Below, piece after piece: positions 5,015 to 34,664 of a stretch of DNA of 64,000 nucleotides; position 1 is the first letter of the stretch, and each line of letters opens with the position of its first letter. The stretch is from an uncultured Lentimicrobiaceae bacterium (GTDB lineage Bacteria; Bacteroidota; Bacteroidia; Bacteroidales; F082). A program made the translations under genes and the position numbers. The notes beneath the pieces are model-generated. The model was not told the origin of the DNA. It was given only the letters and a program-made list of their open reading frames with translations, and made no database searches. Location of the stretch: positions 19,049 to 83,048 of the forward strand of contig CAZDWA010000002.1 of NCBI GenBank assembly GCA_964509065.1. The letters run 5' to 3'.

Positions 5015-5042
5015 CGTATTAATCTAATATATTTACTAATTC

Positions 5043-5658: not shown

Positions 5659-5713
5659 CATAATTTTTGCTTATTTTTGACTTGATATCACATCATAATA
5701 TCTCCTTGTATCT

Positions 5714-6379: not shown

Positions 6380-6635
6380 GTTTCGCAAGCTCATTTACCA
6401 CAAAAACAAGAAAAAGCTTAGGGCTTTTTTTGGAGTGCTTTTGTTTTATTCGTCTATTACAACTGCTCACACTTACTCGCAGAAAAGCATTGTAATAGCT
6501 TTTCCATCCTGATATTAAATCATTACGTATTATTGATAAAAGGGCATTCTTAAAACTATATTATCTCAAAACATTAGTAGTGTTTAAGTTGAAAAAAACA
6601 ATAACTTTACACCATGAAAAGAATGCAAAAGCTAC

Positions 6636-8750: not shown

Positions 8751-8957
8751 CAATTATAAGATTAAGGCATTCTATTGAAAAATCTATTTATGCTTACTTT
8801 TATCTTATAAGATATAAATATACTAATTCGACAAATTAGCACGAATATTCTAAGTTGAAAACCCAATAATTCTCAACATTTTTTTTCAGAACTCTCTCTA
8901 AAAAAACTTAGGTTGTACGTTCTTACTAGGTTTTATCCAACCATAAATCTATTCGCT

Positions 8958-11252: not shown

Positions 11253-11293
11253 GAAATAAAATTTAGGTCGTTATCAATTCTTGTGTTACTAGC

Positions 11294-13111: not shown

Positions 13112-13255
13112 TTACTTATCTAAATAAGACAATTCTTAATGTGAAGAGGTAAAGTTATAGAAATTTTACGAATAGCCAAAGCTCAAGTTTCTAGGGGAAA
13201 TAGGATAAATATCCGTGTTTATTTAAGCCTATTTTGTAATTTCAATGATATAAAA

Positions 13256-13283
13256 AAGCCGTCTTTCTTTAGATTGACGGCTT
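13256..13283 (-). terminator. rho-independent terminator downstream of the C69 peptidase gene
   Basis: AAGCCGTC (13256-13263) pairs with GACGGCTT (13276-13283) around a 12-nt loop. Read on the minus strand, the hairpin is followed by TTTTTT. Confidence 0.6.
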
Positions 13284-13315
13284 TAATTACATTCTTATAT
13301 TTTCAAAGCTTGTGG

Positions 13316-15088
13316 CTAATCCTTATCGCTTTCGATTACTTTTAGCTTATCTCCGGTATCTTCCACGATTTTGCGTAAAAACTCCTTGCTGTAACCTGCA
13401 AATTCCACTTTTGGAATAGTTGAACCTTCTTGACGGGTTTTTACGTTTCCATCCATATATTTCATAAACAGCTCTTGGTAAAGATGTTTATAGCTGTTGA
13501 AAGTGCGATTTACCTGATCATGACTAAAATCAGTCAAAAATTCAACCGCTGCTTCTTTATTATCTTGATGTAAGACCCGTGCTGCCGCATCAATAGCAGG
13601 CACCAGTTTGATAAAGGTTGCTTCCAGTCCATCCCTTACTTCTGCCACATCTGGCTGAATCCGATTGTAGCGAGTATACGATAAGTTCGACACCATATTG
13701 GTAATCCAAAAGAGCGAAGTTTCGGACCATTCCATCAACGCACCGTTCCCTTCTTCAATAGGATGCGGACTGGTTGTCATGCTACTATATAATGGCATAT
13801 ATGCACCGGCATTGGCATCGTCCACTCCCCACCAAATAATACCGCCAATTTCATCGGGCAACCAAGAGCGTGACTGGGTAACAAAGGAAAAACCGGTTTG
13901 CTGTGTGACGGTAGCTCTCTCATTTACATAACTTACTCCATCCACTTTCCATGTAAGCGGGCGCCAACGATAAGGCAGTTCAAACGGCTGTGCACCAAAA
14001 TCTTTTGTCATATCCAACTCAGTGCCTTGCAGATAATCGCGCATAAACATCATCATATCGTGTAATGATATCTTTTTATTGGGCTTTACCCAAAGTGGCA
14101 TACGGTTGGTGGCATAGTTGTTTGGATTTGGACGGCCATCTTCAAAAGTGCCTTCATGTTTAATATGTCCTTTTACATAATCCCAATACTTATCCATTCT
14201 GTCGGTTACCTTATTAAACATGGTCCACACACGGATATCGCAAAAACGTGCTCCGCCAAAATCAACGGGTGCATAGGTATCCGAAAAGCTAAATCCGCTA
14301 TCTTCGCCTACAAACCAAGCTTTTTTACGTGCAAAACTGATTACATCTTCCGCATAAATCACTTCAACCTCTTTGTTGAAAATCTTGTCCATATCTTTTG
14401 AAGTGATCGAACGTTTGCCATCAGCCAAAGGGAAGGTTTGTATGCGCGCTTGATTCGCATGTGCGCTTACATAGCCGTCAGGGATACGCATTGCCACCCA
14501 TACGATACCTTTATCCGCATTATATTCTTTTTTGGTTTTTCTGTCGACTTTAAGATCAGTGCCCTTGCCGATAAGTTCCATTATCCACACCTCATCTTTA
14601 TCGGCAATGCTGAAAGATTCTCCTGAGCTGCGATATCCGTATTCGGAAAGCAGTTCTACTATGGTTTTTATGGCTTCACGCGCTGAGCGGGAACGCTGCA
14701 AGGTGATATAAATAAGGCTGCCATAATCCAAAATACCGGTTTTATCAACCAATTCCGAGCGTCCGCCAAAAGTGGTCTCACCAATGGCAAGCTGGTATTC
14801 ATTCATGTTTCCCACCACATTATAGGTTTGGGAAGCTTGTTTAATTTGTCCGGAATATTTTCCCGAATCCCATTCAATAATATCCAACATGCTTCCTTCG
14901 GGATGTTGTGCTGCGGGCCAATGATATAACTCACCATACAACTCATGCGAGTCGGCAGCATAAGTCACCATAATTGATCCATCTACCGAAGCTCCTTTGG
15001 TAACGATATAATTCGTACAAGCCTCAGCATGAAGCGGCACAAGGCTCAAGGCAACAAATGCCGAAATGACATAAAATAATTTCTTCAT
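13316..15088 (-). CDS. C69 family dipeptidase
   Basis: 590-aa ORF. A signal peptide is followed directly by the nucleophile Cys context HAEACTNYIVTKGASVDGS, typical of C69. Confidence 0.85.
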   Translation of the reverse strand: MKKLFYVISAFVALSLVPLHAEACTNYIVTKGASVDGSIMVTYAADSHELYGELYHWPAAQHPEGSMLDIIEWDSGKYSGQIKQASQTYNVVGNMNEYQLAIGETTFGGRSELVDKTGILDYGSLIYITLQRSRSAREAIKTIVELLSEYGYRSSGESFSIADKDEVWIMELIGKGTDLKVDRKTKKEYNADKGIVWVAMRIPDGYVSAHANQARIQTFPLADGKRSITSKDMDKIFNKEVEVIYAEDVISFARKKAWFVGEDSGFSFSDTYAPVDFGGARFCDIRVWTMFNKVTDRMDKYWDYVKGHIKHEGTFEDGRPNPNNYATNRMPLWVKPNKKISLHDMMMFMRDYLQGTELDMTKDFGAQPFELPYRWRPLTWKVDGVSYVNERATVTQQTGFSFVTQSRSWLPDEIGGIIWWGVDDANAGAYMPLYSSMTTSPHPIEEGNGALMEWSETSLFWITNMVSNLSYTRYNRIQPDVAEVRDGLEATFIKLVPAIDAAARVLHQDNKEAAVEFLTDFSHDQVNRTFNSYKHLYQELFMKYMDGNVKTRQEGSTIPKVEFAGYSKEFLRKIVEDTGDKLKVIESDKD

Positions 15089-20530: not shown

Positions 20531-20887
20531 TTATGCGGTTTCTACAGCTTGCGTATTAGGATAAAAAACCAAAAAGTCACTCGCTTGTATTTCTACGGTA
20601 TAGCGTTTATTGCCATCTTTGTCTTCCCAGCTGTTGCTGGTAATTTTTCCGGTCACTGCCAGCTGCTGACCTTTTTTCACTACCTTTTCTATACGCTCGG
20701 CAAGCTTGCCAAAAGCTACAATACGGTGCCAGGTGGTTTCATCCACGCGCTCGCCCTTATCATTATAATAATACTCATTCGTTGCGAGCGTAAAGCGTGC
20801 CAGCTGGCGATCTTTAGAAATAGTTCTTACTTCAGGGTCAATGCCTGCGCGTCCAATTAATTGTACAGAATTTCTCATTGTTGTCAT
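20531..20887 (-). CDS. ssb: single-stranded DNA-binding protein, short form without the acidic C-terminal tip
   Basis: 118-aa ORF. The OB-fold pattern is NSVQLIGRAGIDPEVR...RFTLATNE...ETTWHRIVAFGKLAE...KGQQLAVTGKITSNSWEDKDGNKRYTVEI. It ends ...NTQAVETA with no D-D-D-I/L-P-F type tail. The start may be the internal MRNS. Confidence 0.8.
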   Translation of the reverse strand: MTTMRNSVQLIGRAGIDPEVRTISKDRQLARFTLATNEYYYNDKGERVDETTWHRIVAFGKLAERIEKVVKKGQQLAVTGKITSNSWEDKDGNKRYTVEIQASDFLVFYPNTQAVETA

Positions 20888-21045
20888 GATTACAAGTGTT
20901 TAGTTAATAAATGGGTGAACAATCAATGATGCAAAACTACATCCGGCAGTAGCATGTAGTCGTATCACGAATAAGTAGATACGTATATAAGTGTTGTTAT
21001 ACGGTTAGGAACGGGTATATGGTTGATTTACTATATATTAAATAA

Positions 21046-21174
21046 TATAGGGTTGACAATGAAAAACAAAGAATTTAAACCATGCCAATCTCCGTTCACG
21101 CACACCACGGCTTGGTAGACGGCTACCATGTGGGACTGTTTATATCGCACTTTCAAGAGTTGATGAATGGGTAG
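21046..21174 (+). pseudogene. relic of the 3' end of a type-A chloramphenicol O-acetyltransferase (CAT) gene
   Basis: Hand translation of 21082-21174 is MPISVHAHHGLVDGYHVGLFISHFQELMNG*. This matches the conserved CAT C-terminus (..P.S.QVHHA..DG.H...), including the catalytic His region. An in-frame TAA lies just upstream and the first ~180 codons are absent. Confidence 0.6.
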
Positions 21175-21191
21175 GTGGTGGGAATTATGAA

Positions 21192-21665
21192 TTATTTAAT
21201 CAGCAATGTTGATTTTGCAGAAAGAGCTTGTTCAACTTTTTTCAGGCCGTAAAATTGAGTAATCTCTTCTTTTTCTTCTTTGTTTCCTCTCTCAAAGACT
21301 CTTTTGATGATAGAATTGGCATAGCTTTCCCAATCTAATTTTTCAACATCAGTATCCCAGAATAATGATTTTCTAATTTTTCGTAAATCAGGAGTTCTTC
21401 TTGGGAGTTTTAACTTTTCTCTTTCAATATTAAAATAAGCCTGTAATAATACTAACTCACCCTCATTTAATCCGAGTTCTTTTTCAATCTTTAAAGCCAA
21501 AGAAGTAGGCAAATTTCGTTTGCCTTTTATAATTGCATTAAATGTTTGAGGGAATTCACCCACCGCCATTGAAAATGGTCGCTGTTTTAGCCCTCTTTTC
21601 AACAGTTCTCTCCCAAGAACAATTCCCGGATGAATGCCTTTATATTTCTTACTTAAAGATTTCAT
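21192..21665 (-). CDS. XRE/HigA-like HTH protein (antitoxin-like) with a C-terminal extension
   Basis: The track ORF is 21192..21767. I prefer the internal ATG at 21665 (MKSLSKKYKGIHPGIVLGRELLKRGLKQRPFSMAVGEFPQTFNAIIKGKRNLPTSLALKIEKELG), which is typical of HigA/VapI-type HTH proteins. A 9-bp palindrome sits just upstream. Confidence 0.7.
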   Translation of the reverse strand: MKSLSKKYKGIHPGIVLGRELLKRGLKQRPFSMAVGEFPQTFNAIIKGKRNLPTSLALKIEKELGLNEGELVLLQAYFNIEREKLKLPRRTPDLRKIRKSLFWDTDVEKLDWESYANSIIKRVFERGNKEEKEEITQFYGLKKVEQALSAKSTLLIK

Positions 21666-21672
21666 TTTGCAA

Positions 21673-21694
21673 ATATAAGCATTTTTGCTTATAT
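21673..21694. promoter_or_regulatory. perfect 9-bp inverted repeat immediately upstream of the HTH gene start (candidate autoregulatory operator)
   Basis: ATATAAGCA (21673-21681), loop TTTT, then TGCTTATAT (21686-21694). It lies 8 nt from the preferred ATG at 21665. Confidence 0.4.
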
Positions 21695-21797
21695 ATTGAA
21701 ATTTTAATTGATTTTGTCCATCACACTCAAGTTTTTCTTTTAGCGCTAAATGCCTGGTTATGTTCATTAATTTTTAAAACATAGATTAGATTAATCT

Positions 21798-22032: not shown

Positions 22033-22063
22033 TTGACTTTATATGTTTCTCATCGTATATTTG
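22033..22063 (+). promoter_or_regulatory. putative Bacteroidota-type promoter for the 22081 operon
   Basis: TATATTTG at 22056-22063 fits the TAnnTTTG -7 element. A TTG lies at 22033-22035, about 21 nt upstream. The ATG at 22081 follows 18 nt after the motif. Confidence 0.35.
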
Positions 22064-22080: not shown

Positions 22081-23901
22081 ATGCCACCAAAACCAAAAAA
22101 AACAAAGAAAGCTGGCAATGAAACTGTATTGTTTCGTTTAAAATACAGAAATACAGCAAACAAGTGTTTGATTGCCGTCCTTCAAAAACCGATTGTAGTC
22201 GCCAACCAGCAAAATCGGATACCTAATTTTTTATCAATTATCATAGCCACAGGCTTAGTGGTTTTTTGTTCCTTTCTAGGCTTTAGCCAAGATTTGGGAA
22301 GCATAGCACAACAAAAGCCTTTCAAAATCAGAGGAAACATTGGCACGAATTTCATCGGCTATGGGTCCAACGCAATTGATAACCAAATGCAGCCTTTTTC
22401 GGCTCTACTTGCTTCCAATGCCACTGCGTATGTGTACGGCATGGCGATTCCGTTTTCAGTTCGCCTACACAACCGAAATCTGGATTATAGCCAGCCATTC
22501 AATCAAGTTGGGCTGAGCCCTTCCTATAAATGGGCAACTGCTCATATCGGATATAGCAGTGTTAATTTCAGTAATTTCACCTTATCGGGGCATCGTTTTC
22601 TTGGGGGCGGTGTGGAGCTTAAGCCCGGAAAATTTCGATTCGGCTTGATTTATGGAAGGTTCAAAAAGGCTACTACTGCATTTCAACATGCAGTTGATAC
22701 GGCACAAAGCCTGACGCGGAGAGGATTTGGAGCAAAAATAGGAATTGGCTCGGAGCAGACTTATGTGGACCTGGTTGTACTAAAAATAAAAGACGACAGC
22801 AGCAGTGTGATTGACCCGCTTTCTCCGGCCTACCTGCCATCCGAGGAAAATCTTGTGACAGGCATCAATACGCGCATCAAGCTGTCAAAAAGCCTGAGCT
22901 TTGAGTCGGAAGCGGCAGCCAGTATTTACACCACCGACATAAAGGCTATGGGTTTTGAGGGGGGCGATCAAGATGAGTTGCTTGAAACAATCAACAAGAT
23001 TATCAAGCTGAATTTATCCACTGAACTGCTTACTGCAGTCCGGGCTTCGCTCAATCTGCGCTTGGGAAAGGTGAATACCAAAATGGAATACCGCCGTATT
23101 GACCCCGGATACCGCTCAATGGGTGCCTATTTCATGAACAACGACTTAGAAAATTTGACTATCAGCCCTTCCGTGAGTTTGTTCAAACGCAAACTAAATC
23201 TGAGAGGAAGCATTGGCGTGCAACACGATAATTTACGCAATGTGAAACGTGCTACTTCCCTGCGCACCATTTCGGCCATTCATGCTTCTGTGAACCCTTG
23301 GCCTGTTTTCGGGCTTGATGTAAGTTACAGCAATTACAGTTCAAACCAGCGCCCGGGAAGGGTGCCGCTGATTGACTCACTGAAATTGTATCAGGCGACA
23401 AGCAATTTAAATATCACACCCCGGCTGATGTTCAACGGACAAAAATACAACCATATGGTAATGTTGGTGCTGAGTAATATGGGCTTGCGCGACTTCAACG
23501 ATTACACCCGAAGACATAATGAGAATAAGGCTTTGATTGCCAATCTTACCTACAGCCTCAATCTGGTGAAGCTGAAAGCCAATCTGATGGCAGGAGCGAA
23601 TTACAACCGACTCGAAAACTATCTAACGACCACCACAGCAAGCGGAATCATGGTCGGTGCTTCGAAAAATCTATTGAATGACAGAATAAATCTGGGATTC
23701 AACCATGCTTTTATCAGAATGAGCTACCAAGAGGGCAATGGCAGCACACACAACACCACCCTTACTTCATCCTATGCCCTAGCAAAACAGCATGCCATGC
23801 GGCTGAATGTATATTTTATCAATGCAAATTATCCGGACAAAGAACTTTTACCGGCTTTTAATGAAATTAAAGGAGACCTGAGCTATGTCTACACTTTTTA
23901 A
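22081..23901 (+). CDS. predicted outer-membrane beta-barrel (porin-like) protein, family not recognised
   Basis: 606-aa ORF. Alternating hydrophobic/polar strand patterns run through the whole length, with many G/Y/N/S turns. It ends GDLSYVYTF (terminal aromatic, OMP beta-signal-like). The hydrophobic signal-like segment (FLSIIIATGLVVFCSFLGFSQ) is preceded by an unusual ~50-aa basic extension. Confidence 0.55.
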   Translation: MPPKPKKTKKAGNETVLFRLKYRNTANKCLIAVLQKPIVVANQQNRIPNFLSIIIATGLVVFCSFLGFSQDLGSIAQQKPFKIRGNIGTNFIGYGSNAIDNQMQPFSALLASNATAYVYGMAIPFSVRLHNRNLDYSQPFNQVGLSPSYKWATAHIGYSSVNFSNFTLSGHRFLGGGVELKPGKFRFGLIYGRFKKATTAFQHAVDTAQSLTRRGFGAKIGIGSEQTYVDLVVLKIKDDSSSVIDPLSPAYLPSEENLVTGINTRIKLSKSLSFESEAAASIYTTDIKAMGFEGGDQDELLETINKIIKLNLSTELLTAVRASLNLRLGKVNTKMEYRRIDPGYRSMGAYFMNNDLENLTISPSVSLFKRKLNLRGSIGVQHDNLRNVKRATSLRTISAIHASVNPWPVFGLDVSYSNYSSNQRPGRVPLIDSLKLYQATSNLNITPRLMFNGQKYNHMVMLVLSNMGLRDFNDYTRRHNENKALIANLTYSLNLVKLKANLMAGANYNRLENYLTTTTASGIMVGASKNLLNDRINLGFNHAFIRMSYQEGNGSTHNTTLTSSYALAKQHAMRLNVYFINANYPDKELLPAFNEIKGDLSYVYTF

Positions 23902-26900
23902 CAAAATAACAAACACCAAACGACTGAAACACTCCATACATCAGTTCATGATTTTAGTGCTTTTGCTAATTCCAGTTTCGGTCTTCAGCCAGTTTGCGCC
24001 CGTGCAAATCAATGTGGCACTCAGCCCGCCTTATTCCAATAAGATAAGTGATTACACTTCCCAGCCCAATAAGGTCATGGTCACATTACACAATCTTTCG
24101 CCGGATGCTTCCACATTGAGAGTGTATCTTCAAGCAGAGCTATCGGGGCAAAGTGGAGTCCGTATCTTTACCAATCCCAACCGCAAGCCCACTTCTCCCA
24201 TTATTTTACAGCCGGGCTTCCCTTATACCCTCAGGCTGAATGATGTAGAGGAAATATTTTCCGGCAGTCAGCTGGCATTGGAGGGCATCACGGAATATGA
24301 GTTGCTTTACGGCAACGGCTTGCCCGAAGATGAATATGTCTTTTGTGTACGCGCTTTCGATTTTGATACGGATGAGCCCTTATCCGACGAATCACCTTTT
24401 GGTTGCAGCCCGCCCATGATTATCGGCTATTTTGAAGCACCCATTATCACTTCACCTTGGTGTGAAGAAGAAATAGAAGCTACAGAACCTCAGAATATTA
24501 TCTTTTCGTGGATACGGCCTGCCGGTGCGCCATTAAATATTTTTTACAAATTAAAGATTGTAGAAGTATTTCCGCCTGAAGCCAATATAAATGATGCCAT
24601 GAATTCGGCTGCACATCCTATATTTTTCGAAACGAATGTTCCCTCAAACAGTTTTATTTATGGTGCTGCCCAACCGGCATTGGTCACCGGAAAAACCTAC
24701 GCATTTCAAGTTACGGTAGTGGACCCGAGCGGTAAAACGGCATTCCGGAATGAGGGTAAAAGTGAGGTGTGCAGCTTTAGGTATGTGGAGGGCGAGGGCT
24801 TTTATACAATGACAGACCCCATTCCTCCGGTAATAATTAGTCCGCCAAATGTATTGCCCGACGATTTTGAGCTTAAGCCGCCCACCCATATCAGCGGAAA
24901 TATTCTGATTAAATTTCCTACCAATCCCCACGACTCGGTATATATAGGTGATTTTCCAGGTCTTGGTGGTGGTCAGATTCAAATTCCAGGCTTTGGAGGA
25001 GGTCAGATTCAAATTCCGGATTCTCTGCCCGGGGGCACAGGTAGTGGATTCAACTACAACCAGATACACCAAATGGCTAATGCGGTGGGAAGCAATATCA
25101 ACCTGCACAACAATTCAAACGGAACGCAGCAAAGCTCGGGAAGCGCCAACACTCCATTTATAAATGAAAACTTCGGTTGGGGTTTGCCCCTTATTGATTT
25201 AATGAACAGCAAAAAATACGTGTTTGAAAGTACAGAAAGCAATAAATTCACCAAGCCTTTGGCAAATATGCGTATTCGATTGGTGGCACGCTTTGCTTCC
25301 TATGAAGAACTTGACTACACACTTGCCGAGCACACCTTTGGACTTGAACATCCTACCTATGATGTCAATTTATCAAGTAGTGGGTTTGCTTCCATACAAG
25401 GGCTCGACTTGACGCATACATATTATGGAGATGCCTATCGCTATCTGAACATCGTATTGGATGAAACCACCACGGATGAATTTGGAAATTACAGCTTCGA
25501 CTTCACAAATGATTTCTGGACAGGTATTTTAAAAGCCGACATCATCGATGGGCACAATGTGCCGGCTGCAGGACCTCAGGCTCCGGGCCAAATCATATTC
25601 GATCCAATCAACTCCATTGTCTTTCCCGGTGCAGTATTGAATCCCGGACAATTCAATCCCGCTGCAGGCAAAATCAATGTTTTTGGAGAGCACACACCAC
25701 AAAAAGTCAATGTGCATGCAGCACCACCGAATTTGATTTCCGGTCATAGTCACTATGGCTATGTATGCTTGAAAATTGAAGTCGTCAACCAAAAATTTGC
25801 CAGTCCCGATATTGATATTTTCGCCATGCCGGGAGATAATCTCCAAATACCGACACAAATGGCGAAGCTGAAAACTTACAATATGATTGTTCAGGTAAAT
25901 GCAAACGATCAGCCGGAGCAAATTCTTGGCGCAAACAGTCCCATACCCGGTGCCCGAGTGAGTATATTCAGAGATAATGCCAAGGTGGGGCAAGAAGTAC
26001 CGGCAATTATTAAATACGAAGGACAAAAATTAGACAGCAGAACATTTATAAACAATGCTGAATTCAAAAATATTGCCATAGATACAACCAACCTAAATGG
26101 CACAACTGTATTTTATAATCTGGTACGCCATGCATATTTTAATCCTCAATACAGAATTCAAGTTTTAACACGAGCCGGGGAATTAGTGGATGCTGATTAT
26201 GAAAATACATTTTATAATTATAAGGAACGATTTGAAAAGCTTTCAGATGAGCAAGTCTACGCCATACAAACTACTTCTGACAAGGTGATTTACAATCATC
26301 AATACGAGATTCCAATAATTACCAGGAAGTATGAACTCAAACCGCTTCCGCCCGAGATAAAAGGGCGTACCATGGCCATGTCGAATCTGGAAAACATCGG
26401 AATACCCGGCGTATCAATCAGTCTCCTTAATCAAAATGGAGCTGGTTACGTGAATGATTATTTTGATTTTTGGATCAAATGCAATACACCTGAGAATAGT
26501 ATGCAATCCATGGAAAACGGCTTTTTCCGCTTCCCGAATTTAGCGGTAAAAAATACGCACGGTAATCGTATTTATCGCCGCTTATTGATTAGCCATCCAC
26601 TTTACAAATCCAGGATTTATCCGCCCATAGGAACGCAGGCTAATGGAGGACAAAAGCCATACAACTTATCGTTAGGCGAGCTGGTAGACATAAAAGATGT
26701 GAATCTGGAGCCAAAGGAGTTAGTCAATGGTTATGTGGAAGATGAAGATGGAAATCCGGTAACAGCATATGTGCGATCGGGAGATTCGCCCTATTATAAA
26801 ACGGAGCTGAAGCACGTTATCATAAATCCTTTCCCGCCGACCGTAACCGTAACTCGCGAAACTTTTTCGGTACCGGCTGAACCACAGGAGTTGGTAGAGC

Positions 26901-29900
26901 TCGAAGTGCGGCCATTGTCCACTAAATATTTTCCGCAAGACACCGCCTATTATCCCGGGGCAACAGCTGCAAAGATTACTGTATATCGTCGTTTGCACCG
27001 ACCGGAAATCACTGTTTTAAACGAACAAGGGCAGCCTGTATTCGGAGCAACAGTAAATATAGGCGGATTTGAAGCAACAACGAACAATTTGGGGGTTGCA
27101 AGGTTCAAATTTGCAGCGGCTGCAGATCAATTCATACTCAAGATTACACCTTCACCGGCTTATGCACCCATACAAGTACCTATAGAAATACCTGTCAGCA
27201 AGCATACGATTGCATTGGAACCGTTTATTTTAAAAAAGGCAAAATCACTACAAGGAAGGGTTACGGTACAATCGAGCTTTCTTCCCGTAGAGGGCGCCTT
27301 GGTATTTGCTGAACTGCTAACTACCGATGGCTCGCCTTTGTATATTGAAGCCACCACAAACGAACAAGGCAATTATTTGCTCCAAGGCATACCTAGCGAT
27401 ATGACCGGTTTGATGGTGCAAGTTATAAAAGAAGGAAGCAAACCAAGCTATATAGGAACCGGTGAATATATAAGCTATCCGCAGACCAATCCTTTGCTAC
27501 CCATGACAAAGAATTTCAGTCTACGGGCGGTTACCGATTGGGATTTGTCTACACTTTGGAAATATCCGATTGCAGTAACAGATTTGACAGAGCGAACGGA
27601 GTACGGAGAAACACGCTATTTTATCTCAGGTTATTTGAACTCTCCCAATCCACTTGGTGATTTAGCGCTCTTGCAAAGCGATTTGAAAATTCCTTTTGCC
27701 ACGGTACAAGTAAATAAGGGAAATAACAACAAACCCGAACCGCTAACCGAAAAGCTCACGCTCGAAACCATGGAAATCCCCTTGCGTGTAGGGGCTAGTT
27801 ATACGGCTACATTGTACAATTATGGAAGTGCCAATTTATATGGCATATTCCAAAAGAAATTTTTAGAGTTACATAAAATAACCGCCGGTATGGGAGGAGG
27901 GCGGATTGATGGTCATCTGAAGTTAAATTTATCAAGCTTTGAGCTTGAGCACCAATTCAGTGGACAGCTTTTCATTGGTGATGACACCACTTCGAGTCGC
28001 ATTACTGCGTTTAATACGGCATTTCCATATCCACAGCAAAATATACGTTATCCGATATTCAGCATAAGCCGTTTCCTAAATCCGGTAGCAGTCAAGTCGT
28101 ATAAAGTATTTGGATTTAATGCCAGTTCCGACTTGAGCAACAGCTTTTTACAAAATGATGTCATACGGTTAAAAACTATTTTGCATACCCAAATCCCCGG
28201 TGGAGGTCCCAACTCAACACTGGATTTAAAAATACCGGCTGGTGCTCTCGTGATAAAGAATACCGAAATAAACTTTGAAGAAACCCCAAGCAGTTCGATG
28301 GTATTTGATTTGGAAAAATGGAAAGTTCATACCACCAAACCCTGGCGATTCGATATCAATGAAAATGCCATTGTACTTCCGGAAGTTCTTATCATTACCG
28401 GGCAGGGGGTGGATGCCAAAGTAAAGAATATGAAGGTACGGCCGACTTCATTGCACGAAGGGCAAATTCAACTTGAGGGAGGGCTTACCCTGGGAGGCAT
28501 TGCCAATGTGGAACTTTCGGGCAGTTTGGAACCAATGTTTAATTTCGACAGCAGTATCGGGCATTATCGAATCAGTCTGGTAGGAAGTACAAATACTGCC
28601 GCTGGAGTTGTAAAAAACCTGATGCATACCGATCCTCCCCAATTGGAATTTGAATCTATAGGAATGCTCAGCAATCAAACCGAAGCAATTACTATCAATC
28701 AGACGGTACGCTATTACAATGTGATGGACTTCTACATACAAAGCATCATGACCGGTCCGGGTTTCTTCTCGGTAAAAGGAAGCCCGGAACTAAATATTCC
28801 GGGATATTATCCACCAAATATCGTGGTGAATTATATCAAAGAAAACAAGAAACTGATGCCCAAAATAGATCCGTTACAGGGAACAGTTGAAGCACACGGA
28901 AATGTGGAATTTGAATTAATGCATGATACTGAAAGACAGCATTTTGAGCCCAATCTTTTTACCACATACGGAACAATTCGTATCAAGCCGGCAGCTGATG
29001 AAGAAGGTCCGCCGGTATCATTTACCGGCTTTTTAACCAAAACGCCCGAAGCTTGTGATATTGAAATTATTAAAGTGGACAAGAATAATTTCAAAGGGAA
29101 CGAAATGCAAATGATGCCTGCCGGAATAAACAAAATGCCTGTAGCGGAAGGCTCGATGCATGTAGTGGGTAATGCCTGGGATATTTTATCCTATAAAGCA
29201 TATACCACACAAATCGAAGGAATGGAAGAAAAGTTGCTCGATTTCAAAGTATATGGAGCCATTGATGTCAGCGGAGAAGATATACAAGTGAACAATATCA
29301 ATACTCCGCTTGGAGGATTAAGAATGGTATACAACTTCAAGGAGGGATCCATGCACGGTTCATTGAACATGAGAAATCTTCCATTGGGATTTGCCACAAT
29401 TTATAAAGGCACCGCTTCCGTACGTTTTGATAATCGTGGATACTATTTTCTGTTAAATTTGGAAAACTTTGGTTTAGGACCCGGTGGAGGGATGCCCGAT
29501 TTTAAAGGCGCTTTTCTTGTTGGAAAAGCCAGCCCGGTCAATCCGGAAGATTTGGCAGCAATTCAGGGTAATTTCCGTTATCCTTTACCTGACTTCAGCA
29601 ACTTCAAAGGCTTTTATATAATGGGAGAAAGAGTAATTGTGAATTTTACAACCAGTTTGCTAGGAGTTGCAGATATTCATGTTCTTGCCGGATTAGGATT
29701 ATTTGCAAATGTCAATTTTGGCGAGTCAACTTATGGGATTGGTGGCTATGCGTATGGTGAAATAGAGGGAACAAAAACATATGGTATTGACGAAACCTTA
29801 GGCCTATACTGTACAATAGGAGCAGGAGGACATTTGAATATTGATATACTTGGTCAATATAAAAACAATCAGCTGACAATTACTTCTTGTGGTGAAGCGG

Positions 29901-30058
29901 GAATTCATGGAATTATTGAAGGGCTTTGTGAAAAACCTATTCCAAAAGATATATTAGACCTGATTCGCAGCGGTGTAAAAATTAAAGTTGAAACAGGATA
30001 CAACTTCACAAATAATAAATGGAATTTGGGTGTTGATTTATTCAAAAGTTGTCATTAA
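23885..30058 (+). CDS. 2057-aa secreted or surface giant protein of unknown function with several carboxypeptidase-regulatory-like beta-sandwich modules
   Basis: The start overlaps the upstream stop by 17 nt. The signal peptide is FMILVLLLIPVSVFSQ. CarboxypepD_reg-like segments include VNGYVEDEDGNPVTAYV and LQGRVTVQSSFLPVEGALVFAELLTTDGSPLYIEATTNEQGNYLLQGIP. The last ~250 aa are Gly-rich. No T9SS type-A or type-B CTD is visible. Confidence 0.7.
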   Translation: MSTLFNKITNTKRLKHSIHQFMILVLLLIPVSVFSQFAPVQINVALSPPYSNKISDYTSQPNKVMVTLHNLSPDASTLRVYLQAELSGQSGVRIFTNPNRKPTSPIILQPGFPYTLRLNDVEEIFSGSQLALEGITEYELLYGNGLPEDEYVFCVRAFDFDTDEPLSDESPFGCSPPMIIGYFEAPIITSPWCEEEIEATEPQNIIFSWIRPAGAPLNIFYKLKIVEVFPPEANINDAMNSAAHPIFFETNVPSNSFIYGAAQPALVTGKTYAFQVTVVDPSGKTAFRNEGKSEVCSFRYVEGEGFYTMTDPIPPVIISPPNVLPDDFELKPPTHISGNILIKFPTNPHDSVYIGDFPGLGGGQIQIPGFGGGQIQIPDSLPGGTGSGFNYNQIHQMANAVGSNINLHNNSNGTQQSSGSANTPFINENFGWGLPLIDLMNSKKYVFESTESNKFTKPLANMRIRLVARFASYEELDYTLAEHTFGLEHPTYDVNLSSSGFASIQGLDLTHTYYGDAYRYLNIVLDETTTDEFGNYSFDFTNDFWTGILKADIIDGHNVPAAGPQAPGQIIFDPINSIVFPGAVLNPGQFNPAAGKINVFGEHTPQKVNVHAAPPNLISGHSHYGYVCLKIEVVNQKFASPDIDIFAMPGDNLQIPTQMAKLKTYNMIVQVNANDQPEQILGANSPIPGARVSIFRDNAKVGQEVPAIIKYEGQKLDSRTFINNAEFKNIAIDTTNLNGTTVFYNLVRHAYFNPQYRIQVLTRAGELVDADYENTFYNYKERFEKLSDEQVYAIQTTSDKVIYNHQYEIPIITRKYELKPLPPEIKGRTMAMSNLENIGIPGVSISLLNQNGAGYVNDYFDFWIKCNTPENSMQSMENGFFRFPNLAVKNTHGNRIYRRLLISHPLYKSRIYPPIGTQANGGQKPYNLSLGELVDIKDVNLEPKELVNGYVEDEDGNPVTAYVRSGDSPYYKTELKHVIINPFPPTVTVTRETFSVPAEPQELVELEVRPLSTKYFPQDTAYYPGATAAKITVYRRLHRPEITVLNEQGQPVFGATVNIGGFEATTNNLGVARFKFAAAADQFILKITPSPAYAPIQVPIEIPVSKHTIALEPFILKKAKSLQGRVTVQSSFLPVEGALVFAELLTTDGSPLYIEATTNEQGNYLLQGIPSDMTGLMVQVIKEGSKPSYIGTGEYISYPQTNPLLPMTKNFSLRAVTDWDLSTLWKYPIAVTDLTERTEYGETRYFISGYLNSPNPLGDLALLQSDLKIPFATVQVNKGNNNKPEPLTEKLTLETMEIPLRVGASYTATLYNYGSANLYGIFQKKFLELHKITAGMGGGRIDGHLKLNLSSFELEHQFSGQLFIGDDTTSSRITAFNTAFPYPQQNIRYPIFSISRFLNPVAVKSYKVFGFNASSDLSNSFLQNDVIRLKTILHTQIPGGGPNSTLDLKIPAGALVIKNTEINFEETPSSSMVFDLEKWKVHTTKPWRFDINENAIVLPEVLIITGQGVDAKVKNMKVRPTSLHEGQIQLEGGLTLGGIANVELSGSLEPMFNFDSSIGHYRISLVGSTNTAAGVVKNLMHTDPPQLEFESIGMLSNQTEAITINQTVRYYNVMDFYIQSIMTGPGFFSVKGSPELNIPGYYPPNIVVNYIKENKKLMPKIDPLQGTVEAHGNVEFELMHDTERQHFEPNLFTTYGTIRIKPAADEEGPPVSFTGFLTKTPEACDIEIIKVDKNNFKGNEMQMMPAGINKMPVAEGSMHVVGNAWDILSYKAYTTQIEGMEEKLLDFKVYGAIDVSGEDIQVNNINTPLGGLRMVYNFKEGSMHGSLNMRNLPLGFATIYKGTASVRFDNRGYYFLLNLENFGLGPGGGMPDFKGAFLVGKASPVNPEDLAAIQGNFRYPLPDFSNFKGFYIMGERVIVNFTTSLLGVADIHVLAGLGLFANVNFGESTYGIGGYAYGEIEGTKTYGIDETLGLYCTIGAGGHLNIDILGQYKNNQLTITSCGEAGIHGIIEGLCEKPIPKDILDLIRSGVKIKVETGYNFTNNKWNLGVDLFKSCH
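24959..25018 (+). repeat. in-frame 2 x 30-nt tandem repeat inside the giant gene
   Basis: Unit 1 (24959-24988) encodes GLGGGQIQIP and unit 2 (24989-25018) encodes GFGGGQIQIP. The core GGTCAGATTCAAATTCC is identical in both units. Confidence 0.9.
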
Positions 30059-30097
30059 AAAAATGCGTGATATTTCAATGATTAATAATAAAAAACC

Positions 30098-31609
30098 ATG
30101 AAAAAACTTGTATTTATATATTTCCTCCTCGGGCTTTCGGTTGCTCTGCAGGCACAGCACATCAAAGCCTACAAGAGCAGCAGCCAGACCGATGCCCCAA
30201 ATCTTGAATGGATTATCACAGACATCCAAGACAGTATTTCCAAACTGGACATATTCCGTGCTCCGCATGATGCACAAGCATTCGAGCAGATTGAAACACA
30301 AACATATTTCTTTAACTCTGCTGATACGCTTTTGGTGGGTATCATTGATACCACACTGACCCAAAAAGGAGTCTGGAAATATTATATCCGCGTCCCCATG
30401 CCGGGAAAAGATAATATCAACTCAGACATGATGTTTGCGCACAATATGGGCTATCTGGCTCCTCCCGAAGTGTACAATCTGCAGACGCATTCTGTTAGCG
30501 ACCATAAAGCAATAGAATTGAATTGGGAAGTTCGCAATCCGGCAACCATACTTTCCCAATCCATTTACCGCAGCCGAAGCTACGAAGACGGATATGAGCT
30601 TATTGCTCGATTGGCAGCAGATACACGCTCATATATTGACGAGGTAGACCGAGCCAATGAAGCATGGTTTTATTTCATATTGATTCATGATTATTTCGGA
30701 TACCAGCCTCCAAGTGCGCGCATTCATGGAATCAGCACCTATGCCGAAGCACCGCTCACACCTTTTGGGTTTACAGCAGTTAAAAATGGCAAGGATGTAG
30801 TGATGAACTGGAAAAAAACAAGCGAAAACACCTTCAGTTACCGCATTTATCGCCGCGAAAACGAGAAAGGCAGGTTTTATCCTGTCGGAGAAGCTTTTTA
30901 TCTTCCCGGAGACCATCTCAGTCGCACAGACAGCAATATAATCAATGACAGTATTACAAGTCTGGAATATTATTGCACTGCCATAAGTGACGGATATATC
31001 GAAAGTTTGCCTACGGATACGGCTTATCTTTATTTTCCGGAAAATATTGTGGTAAACCCTCCTGCCGAGTTAGACTATGTATTAGAACCCGATGGGCAAA
31101 TACGATTGTTTTGGACAGCAGCTGACATATTTTCCAATATAATCGGTTACAATCTTTTTAAGCAGGATAACTCCGGTAATGCCATAAAACTAAATATGGA
31201 GCCCATTACGGAAAACAGTTATTTGGATAAGCCGAAAGTGCAAGAAGAAATCATTAGGTATCAGGTAGAATCACTGAATCCGGGCGGCAAGCCTTCTGCA
31301 ATACGAACCAGTGTTGAAGTGGAAATCGTAGTACCACATCATCAATTAGTGTTATCCTGCACGCAAAAAGAAGATGCAATCGTATTAGAATGGATTCCAT
31401 TGAAGCTAGAAGGAATAAAACAGCTACAGATTTTGCGACAAAGCAATGAAAAGGAAGCAGAAGTTATTGCCCGTGTTTCAAATGCAAGCAGTTCGTATAC
31501 CGATCGACAAATAACAGCCAAAACCACTTATGTATATTCCGTTATTGCCGAAATGGAAGATGGTCAACTGATTTTAGTCAATAGCGGTGTAGTGGTTCGC
31601 AAATTGTAA
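30098..31609 (+). CDS. secreted protein built from 4-5 fibronectin-III-like modules, function unknown
   Basis: 503-aa ORF, 39 nt after the giant gene. The signal peptide is LLGLSVALQAQ. The recurring module signature is W...(Y/F)xIYR...Y.D....Y.Y.V.A, for example LNWEV...SIYRS..., MNWKK...YRIYRR..., LFWTA...YNLFKQ... and LEWIP...LQILRQ...YVYSVIA. Confidence 0.6.
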   Translation: MKKLVFIYFLLGLSVALQAQHIKAYKSSSQTDAPNLEWIITDIQDSISKLDIFRAPHDAQAFEQIETQTYFFNSADTLLVGIIDTTLTQKGVWKYYIRVPMPGKDNINSDMMFAHNMGYLAPPEVYNLQTHSVSDHKAIELNWEVRNPATILSQSIYRSRSYEDGYELIARLAADTRSYIDEVDRANEAWFYFILIHDYFGYQPPSARIHGISTYAEAPLTPFGFTAVKNGKDVVMNWKKTSENTFSYRIYRRENEKGRFYPVGEAFYLPGDHLSRTDSNIINDSITSLEYYCTAISDGYIESLPTDTAYLYFPENIVVNPPAELDYVLEPDGQIRLFWTAADIFSNIIGYNLFKQDNSGNAIKLNMEPITENSYLDKPKVQEEIIRYQVESLNPGGKPSAIRTSVEVEIVVPHHQLVLSCTQKEDAIVLEWIPLKLEGIKQLQILRQSNEKEAEVIARVSNASSSYTDRQITAKTTYVYSVIAEMEDGQLILVNSGVVVRKL

Positions 31610-31645: not shown

Positions 31646-31676
31646 CGGTCGGGACTTTACAACAAAGCCCCGACCG
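31646..31676. terminator. hairpin terminator between the convergent operon end and the T9SS cargo gene
   Basis: CGGTCGGG (31646-31653) pairs with CCCGACCG (31669-31676) around a 15-nt loop. Read on the minus strand it is followed by TTATTTT. On the plus strand an A-run follows instead, so it fits the minus-strand gene better. Confidence 0.5.
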
Positions 31677-31700: not shown

Positions 31701-34664
31701 TTATTGCACAATAAATTTCCGTACTACAATGGTATCAGAATAATGTATCAGTACAAAATAAGCTCCTTTTTTATAGTTTTCCAATGAAATATTCGTGTGC
31801 TGCAAGTTTGTGCTGTTAAATGCTTGCACCAATCTGCCGGACATATCCATCACTTTTATGCTACCACCCTCGCTAATTGCAGAACTGATAGTTATAGAAG
31901 AACTTGCCGGATTTGGAAATGCCACAAAAGAGCTTGTTTGTATTTCCTCTACATTTACATAGCCTGTTGTAAACTCAAGCATCTCGGACTGCTCTGACTC
32001 TTGACCTGCAGCATCAACGGTAGTAACAAACACCTGATATTCAGTATCTTGCTCGACATCGAGTATGATTTGTGTTCCTTCAGCTTGGTTTGTAACCGTG
32101 GTTGAATTCACATACACATTAAAATGACCGGGATCATTAATTGGAGGCATATCCCAAGAAACGGGTGCATACTGACCTTCCCGGATGATATCTTCATCCA
32201 CTCGCAGGTTTTCAGGTGCAGGAGGCACTTCATCCGTAGCATAATAATTCAAAACCCCATAATAAGTGGGGGTAAATGTAACATCATTATCTGCAGGCCA
32301 TTTACCGTCCCAAACGGTTTCCACAGCATCGCGTACAAAAAGGAATATACCGCTTGTTTGATCCGCTCCGGGGCTTATTTGCCAGTCCTCATCACCAAAA
32401 GGCAGCGCAAATTCAGCTATCTGACAGTCATCCGTCATAGAAAATGCTATATGTTGTTCCGGCAAATACATGGTTTCACCTACACCACCGGTATTATAAA
32501 TGGGGCGGTAACGGATACTGTGACCTGAGCTGCCATAATACATCCAATAATTACCTTCTGAATCATCATCAGGCTCAGGAAAAACTCCATCATTATTGTC
32601 ATCAATATAAAATGCCACCCCATCATTATCATGGAATGCCAAATCACGATAATTCTCTGAACATACATATAAGAAATCATCATCCATTTTAAAATAAAGA
32701 ATAGCTGTTCCCATTGGTATATCTTCCAAATAGTTCGACACATCTACCCTAAATGCATCATCCCATTCGCCGGCTGATTTAATTCCGTCAATGGTGGGTG
32801 CTGCACCAACATACACATCAATTTCATTAATAATTGCAGAGGTGGAAACATATCCTTGTACCGCAGGGGCAAAAGGTGTCTCCAAATCTTCCGACAAACG
32901 GGCGGTAACCGAATAATAATAACTAGTAGTTGGCACAGCAGCTTCATCCAAAAACTCAGTTGTTTCGGGTCCAATTACTGCAAAAGGATCGCCAAAAGGT
33001 GCATTCTCCGCCACTTTTCGATAAATACTATAGCCGGAAGATGCTTCTGCATGTGCATCCCATATCAATCGTACATAGTTATAAGCTCCTTGCGATGCAA
33101 ATAAATGCTGTACAGCCTCTCCGGCCGCTTCCATGGCAACATCTAAGTTAGTGACTTCACCATCAGAAATTACAACATCATTAATTGTTTGAGGATAATA
33201 GCCGGGAATACTGAAATTCACGCTATAGCTTCCTTCGGGAACAAATCTAATTGTATAAGATCCGTCTTCAGCCGTGGTTTCAAAATAATCATCAATGCCT
33301 TCAATCACTACTTTTACACCACTATGGTCATCAGCAATATCCAAATTCACGGTACCACTCAAAGTACCGGAGTTTGTTGGAACACAATTCACGAGATACG
33401 CATTTCCTCCGGAGCCCATCTCACGGGCATGTGTAGCTTTTCCTCCAATAAGGCAGCGTGTTCCGTCAGCCGACATATCAATACTCCATAAAGAACCTGG
33501 AGTATTCAAATCGCCTATGGGAGAAGTACTTTGTTTGCGGAAAAGATAAAAGTCCGGTGTAGAATGATTCATTGGACCATATGTTACACAGCCTATAATA
33601 CTTCCATCGTCAGACATGGCGACCTGATGCACCTCATCACCCATATTTTCAAATACCCAAATAGGTTCGGGGGAGTAGTTATTAAATAAATACAAGCAGC
33701 CATTATAGCCATTGCTCACGAAATCCAAGGTGCCGATTGCAATATATTTCCCGTCCGCAGAAATTGCCTGCCCTGAACCCCAGGTAGAAGAAGCACCCGG
33801 ACCTGCAATATTTGCTTTCCACACATATTCATACCTGCCATCCTCCCAACGCAATAAGCTTGCCGTACCGGAAAAATCGCCAAAAGCAAGGTATTCAGCA
33901 TTAGCACTAACAGCAAGTGTTTGCGATGGTGAGTTGTTGTAATAATAAATATCATCTTGCAACACTTCGCCGGTTTCGGGATTTAGTACCCAAATTGCTT
34001 GCTCGGGTCCGGCAAAAGCAGCAAAAAGCCTGCTGTCGTCACGTGGAAGCGTAAGACTTACGATATGGGTGGTCAACTCCTTGACAGACCACAAAGGCGT
34101 GCTGCCATCAATGGCATAATAGGATAAAGTAGTCGTATTATTCTCAGGAAAAGTGATATAAAATCCGGTCCCATCTTCTCTTACAGCCACTGCACGCACA
34201 TGCTCCGGGAAGCTGAGGTGATGTATGCTCTCGCCTGTGCTTGGATTTAAAATATTCAATTCCGTATCATCCACCACCACACAAGCTGTTCCGGCTTCAT
34301 TAGCATGATTGAGAGCCCAAGTGTCCTCAGTCCCAAACGCCCATTCTTCAACATTGGTGGCTCCGTACAAAGCTACCCTTTGGTCGTTCAACTGCCAGTT
34401 TACATAGGATTTTTCAGTATTAGGTGAATAAAAAACTTCTCCGGTTGTTGCACCGTCTTCAGGCTTATGCCATAAAATATCTAAGCCTGTAATAGCTTTG
34501 CTTGGAACCGCTGTCTGATTCCAATTCTCAATAAGTTCATAATTTCCCTTTACGGGATCGCTAATTGTCCTGGTTCCTTTTTGAGAAAAACCACTAAGCC
34601 CGACAAATAGCAATGCGGTTAATAGTAAAATAAATCTGTTCATAATTGTAAATTTTGGTAACAC
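31701..34664 (-). CDS. T9SS type-A CTD cargo protein with beta-propeller-like repeats, CarboxypepD_reg-like, Fn3-like and CBM9-like regions
   Basis: 987-aa ORF; the likely start is the internal MNRFILLLTALLF. The last ~80 aa (FPNPASSSITISS...IKVMDMSGRLV...GAYFVLIHYSDTIVVRKFIVQ) fit the Por secretion tail. Confidence 0.8.
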   Translation of the reverse strand: MLPKFTIMNRFILLLTALLFVGLSGFSQKGTRTISDPVKGNYELIENWNQTAVPSKAITGLDILWHKPEDGATTGEVFYSPNTEKSYVNWQLNDQRVALYGATNVEEWAFGTEDTWALNHANEAGTACVVVDDTELNILNPSTGESIHHLSFPEHVRAVAVREDGTGFYITFPENNTTTLSYYAIDGSTPLWSVKELTTHIVSLTLPRDDSRLFAAFAGPEQAIWVLNPETGEVLQDDIYYYNNSPSQTLAVSANAEYLAFGDFSGTASLLRWEDGRYEYVWKANIAGPGASSTWGSGQAISADGKYIAIGTLDFVSNGYNGCLYLFNNYSPEPIWVFENMGDEVHQVAMSDDGSIIGCVTYGPMNHSTPDFYLFRKQSTSPIGDLNTPGSLWSIDMSADGTRCLIGGKATHAREMGSGGNAYLVNCVPTNSGTLSGTVNLDIADDHSGVKVVIEGIDDYFETTAEDGSYTIRFVPEGSYSVNFSIPGYYPQTINDVVISDGEVTNLDVAMEAAGEAVQHLFASQGAYNYVRLIWDAHAEASSGYSIYRKVAENAPFGDPFAVIGPETTEFLDEAAVPTTSYYYSVTARLSEDLETPFAPAVQGYVSTSAIINEIDVYVGAAPTIDGIKSAGEWDDAFRVDVSNYLEDIPMGTAILYFKMDDDFLYVCSENYRDLAFHDNDGVAFYIDDNNDGVFPEPDDDSEGNYWMYYGSSGHSIRYRPIYNTGGVGETMYLPEQHIAFSMTDDCQIAEFALPFGDEDWQISPGADQTSGIFLFVRDAVETVWDGKWPADNDVTFTPTYYGVLNYYATDEVPPAPENLRVDEDIIREGQYAPVSWDMPPINDPGHFNVYVNSTTVTNQAEGTQIILDVEQDTEYQVFVTTVDAAGQESEQSEMLEFTTGYVNVEEIQTSSFVAFPNPASSSITISSAISEGGSIKVMDMSGRLVQAFNSTNLQHTNISLENYKKGAYFVLIHYSDTIVVRKFIVQ

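Follow-up and report, generated by a model that had tools for sequence, protein, structure and literature searches.

A predicted ~26-strand outer-membrane barrel is encoded with TANFOR-family giants and Fn3-array proteins in a candidate surface module of Bacteroidota

Does a barrel of no annotated family, encoded directly in front of a giant secreted protein, serve that protein as its route across the outer membrane or as its anchor there? This question is raised by three adjoining genes in a 64,000-nucleotide (nt) stretch of DNA from an uncultured Lentimicrobiaceae bacterium (assembly GCA_964509065.1, contig CAZDWA010000002.1, positions 19,049 to 83,048 of the forward strand), which we call the window and whose positions are used throughout unless another locus is named. 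The three open reading frames (ORFs) all lie on the + strand: ORF1 (22081-23901, 606 residues as annotated) is predicted to be an outer-membrane beta-barrel of ~26 strands, ORF2 (23885-30058, 2057 residues) is a Sec-exported giant of the TANFOR family, all-beta where it was modelled, and ORF3 (30098-31609, 503 residues) is a secreted tandem array of Fn3 modules. A first-pass annotation made from the letters of the window had packed these genes into one operon, and their common orientation, the 17-nt overlap of ORF1 and ORF2 (23885-23901) and the gap of 39 nt between the stop of the giant and the start of ORF3 were all borne out. We consider it very probable that the three genes form one functional unit, and the best explanation of the results given below is that they make up one operon that encodes a conserved envelope module of Bacteroidota.

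The argument for a single unit comes from gene order. We surveyed relatives of the barrel in one genome per GTDB species, retrieved 79 loci and scored all their ORFs with purpose-built hidden Markov models (HMMs) for the barrel, the N-terminal module of the giant (the N-module, or TANFOR-N), the C-terminus of the giant and ORF3. Relatives of the barrel are present in at least 542 GTDB species genomes. An N-module ORF lies immediately downstream of the barrel in 74 of the 75 loci that have more than 600 nt after it, and an ORF3 homologue comes after 56 of the 59 complete giants that have room downstream. The three families are therefore regular neighbours over Bacteroidota, which is the co-occurrence that had been put forward as a check on the first-pass annotation; the homologues are strongly syntenic and we found no known partnered family for either ORF1 or ORF2. 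The junction between barrel and giant is exactly -17 nt in 32 of 76 cases, distributed over several orders, and most of the others fall between -4 and +37. Accordingly, we define the module as a gene for a ~560-residue barrel, a gene at -20 to ~+40 nt from it whose product begins with a signal peptide and the ~300-residue N-module, and a gene for an Fn3 array. It was found in Lentimicrobiaceae, other Bacteroidales, Prolixibacteraceae, Sphingobacteriaceae, Chitinophagaceae, Cytophagales, Flavobacteriaceae and Tannerella, as well as in one metagenome-assembled genome of Ignavibacteria. The trio of the window scores 2e-250, 1e-136 and 4e-181 against the HMMs of barrel, N-module and ORF3, respectively, with a junction of -17. 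The same locus is present in a Lentimicrobiaceae genome of GTDB, with a barrel 96% identical to that of the window, and an identical giant with the same neighbours is encoded on two metagenome contigs.

The overlap itself (23885-23901) places the ATG of the giant inside the last, conserved codons of the barrel, ...S-Y-V-Y-T-F-stop (cTATGTCTACACTTTTTAA), and is likely to couple the translation of the two genes. Upstream of ORF1, the announced TAnnTTTG motif of Bacteroidota type is present (TATATTTG, 22056-22063) and overlaps the region's best sigma-70-like match (22033-22061); together they form a promoter-like site on the + strand (TTGACT-17 nt-TATATT plus TAnnTTTG, 22033-22063) located 18 nt ahead of ORF1's first ATG. 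We take it as no more than suggestive, because promoter-like matches are no more numerous in the region than in shuffled sequence. The hairpin that had been reported after the third gene was recovered as a 14-bp stem at 31646-31676, between ORF3 and a convergent gene for a type IX secretion system (T9SS) cargo protein, and it is a probable bidirectional terminator and the end of the operon.

Within the module, conservation is very unevenly distributed. When identity was measured to the proteins of the window, and a protein or region was counted as detectable in any of 82 loci if a BLAST match covered more than 50% of it, the barrel was detected in 82/82 loci with a median identity of 37% and residues 36-300 of the giant in 78/82 with 38%. 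The corresponding values were 24% and 21/82 loci for the middle of the giant (residues 441-1180), 23% and 40/82 for its C-terminus (residues 1181-2057), and 23% and 48/82 for ORF3. The conserved core is the barrel together with the first ~300 residues of the giant, and the rest of the giant and ORF3 diverge. Despite this low identity of ~23%, the C-terminal ~880 residues of the giant are homologous across most giants.

ORF1 had been read as a beta-barrel over its whole length, ending in ...SYVYTF, and its AlphaFold2 model, made with 55 homologues, agrees with this reading. The mean predicted local distance difference test score (pLDDT) is 85.9 and there are ~26 antiparallel strands, a count that assumes both termini to be periplasmic, as in outer-membrane barrels, and in which the strand at residues 98-105 is weakly defined. 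The turns on the periplasmic side have 2-4 residues and the extracellular loops at most 29, with neither a plug nor a periplasmic domain in the model; the protein has a signal peptide (...FLGFSQ/DLG) and an aromatic C-terminal end. According to Foldseek, the best match of the model is the 26-strand MtrB (6r2q_B, TMq 0.53), followed by SlpA, FimD/PapC and LptD, and the resemblance to FimD/PapC is confined to the barrel (TMq 0.27-0.46). No Pfam or NCBIfam family matches ORF1 at E <= 1, and sequence and profile searches of the barrel and the giant against the PDB returned nothing below E 0.07. This is in fact a large family: an exhaustive profile search collected 3031 representative clusters (at 50% identity) at E <= 0.001, 1617 of them at E <= 1e-30, and the best 150 of the 3031 matches are all single-domain proteins of 424-601 residues.

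The homologues of ORF1 have ~560 residues, compared with 606 in the annotated ORF, and contain no counterpart of its first ~30-44 codons (22081-22212; MPPKPKKTKKAGNETV...). As judged from this comparison, the annotated N-terminal extension is probably not real and its ~30-44 residues are probably not translated, the actual start probably being an internal non-ATG codon downstream, such as the TTG at 22168 just before the signal peptide. As the model has ~26 strands joined by short loops and is devoid of a plug, nothing in the barrel's own ~560 residues could, on this prediction, close the pore. Its structural neighbours are barrels that enclose a protein or let one pass, namely MtrB around MtrA, the FimD/PapC ushers and LptD with LptE. 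For these two reasons, the missing plug and the nature of the neighbours, we read the barrel as one that needs a partner.

The partner encoded by ORF2 can be assigned to a known class, although it had been listed as unassigned. Its N-terminus resembles a signal peptide and looks cleavable, and directly after it a TANFOR domain (residues 40-179, 24002-24421, with Cys154 and Cys174) matches TIGR02542 with an E value of 2.2e-11 over profile positions 4-143 of 145; the score of 43.9 bits is below the curated cut-off of 67 bits, and the other barrel-linked giants score 21-51 bits. Close homologues are named TANFOR domain-containing protein by JGI, the architecture is that of the Tannerella founders of the class, which was published in 2020 (PMC7073777), and it is by orthology with these founders that ORF2 is a TANFOR domain-containing protein. 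A second conserved module follows (residues 179-300, 24419-24784, with Cys193 and Cys296), recognised by the 40-54% identity that it retains in homologues whose bodies reach only 21-25%. These two modules, which contain the cysteine brackets that had been noticed previously, constitute the ~300-residue N-module common to all partners of the barrel.

Beyond the N-module, a low-complexity linker rich in Gly, Asn, Gln and Ser (residues 301-440, 24785-25204) contains a short peptide duplication, GGGQIQIP-GF-GGGQIQIP (24935-25024, residues ~351-380). We considered a threading of this linker through the pore as a general feature and rejected it, as a comparably biased stretch occurs in only 7 of 66 giants. 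Of the several carboxypeptidase-regulatory-like sandwiches that had been proposed, one is significant, a transthyretin-like CarboxypepD_reg domain at residues 1121-1174 (27245-27406, PF13620, E 3.9e-9) whose local Foldseek matches are transthyretin and CnaB folds; the others are plausible from the all-beta model, so that the proposal is partly sustained. The model of residues 1101-2057 (pLDDT 85.5) consists of discrete short-stranded beta modules, and its best global TM against PDB and BFVD was 0.17 or lower, with local transthyretin/CnaB-like sandwiches as the only matches. The conserved C-terminal ~880 residues (1180-2057, 27422-30055) fit the family HMM from end to end in most giants. Near their end, a Gly-rich meander of nine long strands of 12-21 residues (residues 1822-2013, 29348-29923, from DSSP of the model and from composition) exceeds every other part of the giant in hydrophobicity and is the least charged, with a Gly fraction of 0.15-0.17 and a Kyte-Doolittle value of +0.26; its strands are apparently amphipathic, as far as sequence tells. 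The Gly-rich C-terminus that had been described was thus confirmed, with 15-17% Gly in residues 1801-2000.

ORF3 had been described as an array of Fn3-like modules with a type-I signal peptide, and this holds at the level of the family. The protein of the window has no Pfam match on its own, but 28 of 55 family members match Pfam fn3, the family profile finds the Fn3 arrays of titin and fibronectin at E 1e-48, and there is no lipobox Cys after the signal peptide. Neither ORF2 nor ORF3 contains a T9SS C-terminal domain (CTD) of type A (TIGR04183/PF18962) or type B (TIGR04131/PF13585) in Pfam and NCBIfam searches at E <= 1, and the same scan detects T9SS domains in both genes flanking the trio. 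CXXCH haem motifs are absent from all three proteins.

The assignment of ORF2 connects the trio to a problem already present in the literature. Jana, Salomon and Bosis (2020; PMC7073777) proposed TANFOR proteins as polymorphic toxins of Bacteroidetes, listed many toxin domains at their C-termini, reported Sec signals in ~87% of them and an enrichment of Fn3, SprB and Por_Secre_tail domains near their genes, and found that >95% of TANFOR genomes possess T9SS core genes; how the proteins cross the outer membrane was left open, with the T9SS suggested as a guess. In Supplemental Data 1 of that work we found several giants with a trio-like context. The 3078-residue giant of T. forsythia ATCC 43037 follows a 548-residue protein at -17 and has a 665-residue secreted protein as the second gene downstream, and the 1945-residue giant of Dyadobacter sp. 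AR-3-6 follows one of 544 residues, also at -17, with a 706-residue secreted protein again in second place. In Mucilaginibacter sp. OK283 (giant of 2152 residues, upstream protein of 572 at +4) and Sphingobacterium wenxiniae (2717 residues, upstream protein of 570 at -4) the downstream genes encode Fn3 proteins of 668 and 656 residues, and in Lentimicrobium saccharophilum (1861 residues, upstream protein of 563 at +49) a secreted protein of 520 residues. The main text of PMC7073777 contains neither 'barrel' nor 'porin', and its passages on 'upstream' or 'outer membrane' never concern this upstream gene. In our own survey, the 3080-residue giant of a Tannerella sp. (locus L051), with four TANFOR copies and a TIGR02542 score of 952 bits, sits behind a barrel at -17, which makes the founders of the class members of the trio; in BLAST clustering this giant and that of the window share the C-terminal 350 residues. 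The giant's family is therefore already in the literature. Neither the papers that we searched, mostly open-access, nor Pfam or NCBIfam describe the barrel family, the trio or the coupling of its genes, and on this basis the barrel partner and the trio appear to be new.

We also considered whether the giant of the window is itself a polymorphic toxin, and rejected this. Pfam finds no toxin family in it or in the divergent C-termini of ten other giants, and the gene downstream of the giant is a conserved Fn3 protein (56/59) rather than a cognate immunity gene. Moreover, as the C-terminal ~880 residues are homologous across most giants, the protein is not polymorphic at the end where toxin domains are carried. 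In four loci that share a distinct giant C-terminus, an extra ORF of 175-351 residues stands between giant and ORF3 (L032, 17321-17983; L045, 17148-17675; L056, 9981-10607; L061, 17769-18824); neither these C-termini nor the extra ORFs have Pfam matches, and no immunity family was found among the extra ORFs. Several giants that look short, such as that of L028 (1640 + 530 residues), are probably split by frameshifts.

At other loci the same barrel and N-module are joined to different proteins. In L021 (2897-10420) the barrel overlaps by 20 nt a gene for a 929-residue protein composed of an N-module and a CHAT protease, followed by a 998-residue protein with MORN repeats and a caspase domain (Peptidase_C14), and in L017 (9884-18958) a single barrel precedes three N-module ORFs of 931, 573 and 550 residues that have no known C-terminal domains. 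The distant N-module giants of L087 and L088 have a barrel upstream as well, and there are also N-module proteins with a TNT toxin domain or with Fn3 only. In L006 (Catalinimonas sp., 1-13933) a giant and an ORF3 homologue are followed by a 2027-residue SprB/Por_Secre_tail protein, a 1193-residue protein with an N-module and Fn3, and an ORF of 115 residues. The N-module + Fn3 protein has no adjacent barrel and is encoded 6 kb downstream of the pair formed by giant and ORF3 homologue, and the locus ends before the position where the barrel of the giant would be; one cluster thus combines a toxin-type TANFOR gene with a giant and an ORF3 homologue. Two N-module ORFs of 311 and 1062 residues are found in L018 (9995-15827), and in L025 a second barrel gene (20732-21469) ~250 nt after ORF3 suggests tandem modules.

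What, then, could the barrel do for the giant? Any answer has to account for the gene structure, the predicted fold classes, the family memberships, the synteny and the pattern of conservation described above. We favour, with a probability of roughly 0.55, the reading that the barrel is a dedicated outer-membrane export pore and/or anchor to which the TANFOR N-module docks. We infer this role, together with the docking, the direction of transport, the exposure at the surface and the part of ORF3, from comparative genomics and predicted structure. Besides the near-constant pairing of the genes, in the Tannerella founders too, the following arguments point to it: the gene coupled to the barrel always starts with the N-module, which is as conserved as the barrel itself; the same N-module carries payloads that must act outside the cell; and known barrels of this size are either filled by a partner or pass folded Ig-like subunits. 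In addition, no other export route is evident from the sequences of the giant and ORF3, given that both lack a T9SS CTD. The proposal of the first-pass annotation, a dedicated partner for a giant surface protein with an Fn3 accessory, therefore stands as regards the single conserved unit and remains the best reading of the locus, with export or anchoring as its conjectural part.

According to this proposal, ORF1 would form a very wide barrel of ~26 strands in the outer membrane, and ORF2, translated in step with it by virtue of the 17-nt overlap, would be exported by Sec. The N-terminal ~300-residue module of the giant would then recognise the barrel and dock to it, and the barrel would act as a dedicated conduit and/or anchor while the remainder of the giant moves through it and comes to be displayed on the cell surface. 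The pore would be comparable to or larger than that of the 24-strand usher, which passes folded Ig-like pilins. Once displayed, the giant may form a long fibre on the surface, built from small beta-sandwich modules with the Gly-rich beta-meander at its end, and ORF3, a fast-evolving secreted Fn3 array, could be a co-exported or surface accessory subunit. Elsewhere, the same barrel and N-module would carry other payloads, and polymorphic TANFOR toxins may use the barrel in trans.

Several observations weigh against this proposal. The amphipathic-looking, Gly-rich meander, and not the N-module, could be the end of the giant that associates with the membrane or the barrel. The 4-5 tandem TANFOR copies of the Tannerella giants look more like an adhesive repeat or a stalk than like a single module for docking. 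N-module proteins that stand alone are found in L005, with a TNT toxin domain, and in L086, in both cases with no adjoining barrel in the local neighbourhood examined. The detection of WP_052449025.1, the giant of T. forsythia, in the proteome of vesicles (PMC10682907) counts in favour of the proposal, but these data are silent on the side of the membrane on which the protein lies. Finally, a T9SS is nearly always present in TANFOR genomes, and its cargo is enriched near TANFOR genes and flanks the trio of the window.

This last observation leads to the strongest of the alternatives, in which the T9SS carries the giant and the TANFOR toxins across the outer membrane and the barrel does no more than tether the giant afterwards, as PorP/SprF-like barrels do with SprB-type cargo. 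The published co-occurrence with T9SS core genes (>95%) and the enrichment of SprB and Por_Secre_tail domains nearby (PMC7073777) are in line with it, as are the two cargo genes that flank the trio in the window, one with CHU_C (17265-19853) and one with Por_Secre_tail (31701-34664), and the SprB/CTD gene between ORF3 and the TANFOR protein in L006. However, the co-occurrence is little informative because the T9SS is nearly universal in these lineages, and Pfam and NCBIfam show no type A or B CTD at E <= 1 in the giant or in ORF3. The barrel, for its part, matches no T9SS family, PorP_SprF included, and its ~26 strands are far beyond what an anchor needs. Furthermore, Sphingobacterium sp. 30C10-4-7, a single draft genome that has the trio, scores 0 for SprA and 0 for SprB with one CTD protein in the table of PMC7073777. 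We therefore regard a T9SS route as unlikely.

A little less probable still is a role in the capture of nutrients or ligands, with the barrel as an uptake channel fed by the giant and the Fn3 protein as surface binders, similar in principle to SusCD. Some loci do lie beside glycoside hydrolase and SusD genes (L003), many are next to two-component systems with Y_Y_Y-type sensors, and proteins of polysaccharide utilisation often contain CarboxypepD_reg and Fn3 modules. Against this, the barrel has no plug, TonB box or TonB-dependent-receptor profile, and an unplugged channel of ~26 strands would not be selective; the families that recur in the flanks of the ~80 clustered loci include none typical of polysaccharide-utilisation loci, and the toxin and CHAT protease payloads on the N-module would be left unexplained.

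The weakest alternative, a periplasmic giant held by the barrel that bridges both membranes as an AsmA/TamB-like lipid-transfer protein or tether, as the first-pass annotation had also entertained, draws on the apparently amphipathic, hydrophobic and Gly-rich last ~200 residues and on Foldseek matches of the C-terminal model that are mostly LptD, ApoB100 and other long-sheet or lipid-handling proteins, but those matches reach a TM of 0.17 or lower, no AsmA, TamB or DUF490 profile matches in Pfam or NCBIfam, the N-terminus looks like a cleavable signal peptide and not a membrane anchor, the modelled region is made of discrete short-stranded beta modules, the body evolves fast (~23% identity), which sets it apart from housekeeping machinery of the envelope, the module is confined to a minority of Bacteroidota, and toxins that act extracellularly, nucleases among them, are carried by relatives of the N-module, so that we consider it very improbable.

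The first-pass annotation did not recognise the trio as SusC/D, T9SS, TamAB, a fimbrial usher or a two-partner system, and our Pfam, NCBIfam and PDB searches agree, as they placed neither ORF1 nor ORF2 in any of these families or in AsmA. The module resembles two-partner secretion (type Vb, such as TpsB/TpsA or CdiB/CdiA) in that in both cases a dedicated barrel gene stands next to that of a very large Sec-dependent substrate, and this substrate combines a conserved N-terminal module with a variable C-terminal payload, toxins included. However, the barrel of the window has ~26 strands instead of 16, it is not an Omp85 protein and has no POTRA domain, and the N-module is not of the TPS/Haemagg_act type; no Pfam match to Omp85, POTRA or Haemagg_act was found in the trio. 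With chaperone-usher systems (FimD, PapC) it shares a wide barrel of similar strand number, a pore about as large as one through which folded Ig-like domains pass and a substrate of Ig-like beta-sandwiches, but it lacks the plug and the N- and C-terminal usher domains, and its substrate is one giant polypeptide instead of polymerising pilins. Pfam has no match to an usher (PF00577 and related) or a PapD-like chaperone in the trio, ORF3 being an Fn3 array and not PapD-like. As every defining feature that we tested for these two systems failed, the module is a member of neither; its apparent way of working is that of two-partner secretion or of an usher, with non-homologous parts.

The same applies to T9SS cargo, MtrB, SusC and TamB. 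MtrB-MtrA-MtrC and LptD-LptE share the principle of a large barrel lumen filled by a separately encoded partner, but the likeness is limited to the fold, without sequence similarity, MtrB_PioB, LptD or OstA profile matches or CXXCH motifs. PorP/SprF barrels with SprB-like cargo are also Bacteroidota barrels encoded beside giant surface proteins, with T9SS cargo nearby; the barrel of the window is much larger and has no PorP_SprF match, and its partner has no type B CTD. SusC and other TonB-dependent proteins are 22-strand barrels with a plug, a TonB box and a SusD lipoprotein, whereas the trio has no TonB_dep_Rec, Plug or SusD match and ORF3 is not a lipoprotein. Within the TANFOR class, the giant of the window shares with the other members the N-terminal TANFOR domain after a Sec signal, the restriction to Bacteroidota and the adjoining Fn3 gene, and it differs from them in having no toxin domain, no immunity gene and a conserved C-terminus of ~880 residues.

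The gene neighbours outside the trio vary from locus to locus. The largest recurrent flanking family, response-regulator-like, is represented in 31 of the ~80 clustered loci, and the second largest in 16. Two-component systems often stand directly upstream of the barrel, with Y_Y_Y/Reg_prop or 7TMR-DISM kinases and LytTR or GerE regulators (for example, L001, 4533-8467, and L087, 108-3211), which suggests regulated expression; none is present in the immediate flanks of the window trio. A gene for a ~574-residue lipoprotein lies just upstream of the barrel on the same strand in 16 loci (e.g., L047, 8411-9922), and one for a ~459-residue lipoprotein, suspected to hold an IPT/TIG-type domain, occurs on the same strand in 10 loci, either just upstream of the barrel or just after ORF3 (e.g., L028, 20112-21641). 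These lipoproteins may be extra components in modules of the Sphingobacteriia type. In the window, the trio is flanked by genes for two T9SS cargo proteins, one of 862 residues on the + strand with Lamin-tail, Big_5 and CHU_C domains (17265-19853) and one of 986 residues on the - strand with CarboxypepD_reg and Por_Secre_tail domains (31701-34664), which match the published enrichment near TANFOR genes but are not conserved at other loci. A divergent gene on the - strand that encodes HTH_3 and DUF6922 domains (21192-21767, 313 nt upstream of ORF1) is retained in the contigs of close relatives and is absent from the recurrent flanking families of other loci. PADLOC and PHROGs searches gave no matches, and thus no sign of a defence system or a prophage.

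In summary, a large barrel gene of an unannotated family stands almost always directly in front of the genes for the founding and largest TANFOR proteins, often with the identical 17-nt overlap at the junction, and the trio may be the missing outer-membrane route of TANFOR toxins and surface proteins. More tentatively, and with less confidence than we place in the barrel as a pore or anchor for its own giant, the barrel and the N-module might represent an unrecognised Sec-dependent pathway of outer-membrane secretion and display in Bacteroidota and relatives, based on a plug-less ~26-strand barrel unrelated to Omp85, ushers, SprA or secretins, which would also serve TANFOR toxins in trans. The analysis flags a large family of outer-membrane proteins, with 3031 clusters and at least 542 species genomes, for which neither Pfam nor NCBIfam has a model, and it turns the open question of how TANFOR proteins leave the cell into specific experiments in the culturable Tannerella forsythia, Pedobacter and Sphingobacterium. 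If the barrel is a translocon, it would constitute a new outer-membrane secretion route with parts unrelated to those of known systems; if its role is limited to that of an anchor or channel, the trio would still be a widespread and regulated surface module of environmental, gut and oral Bacteroidota.

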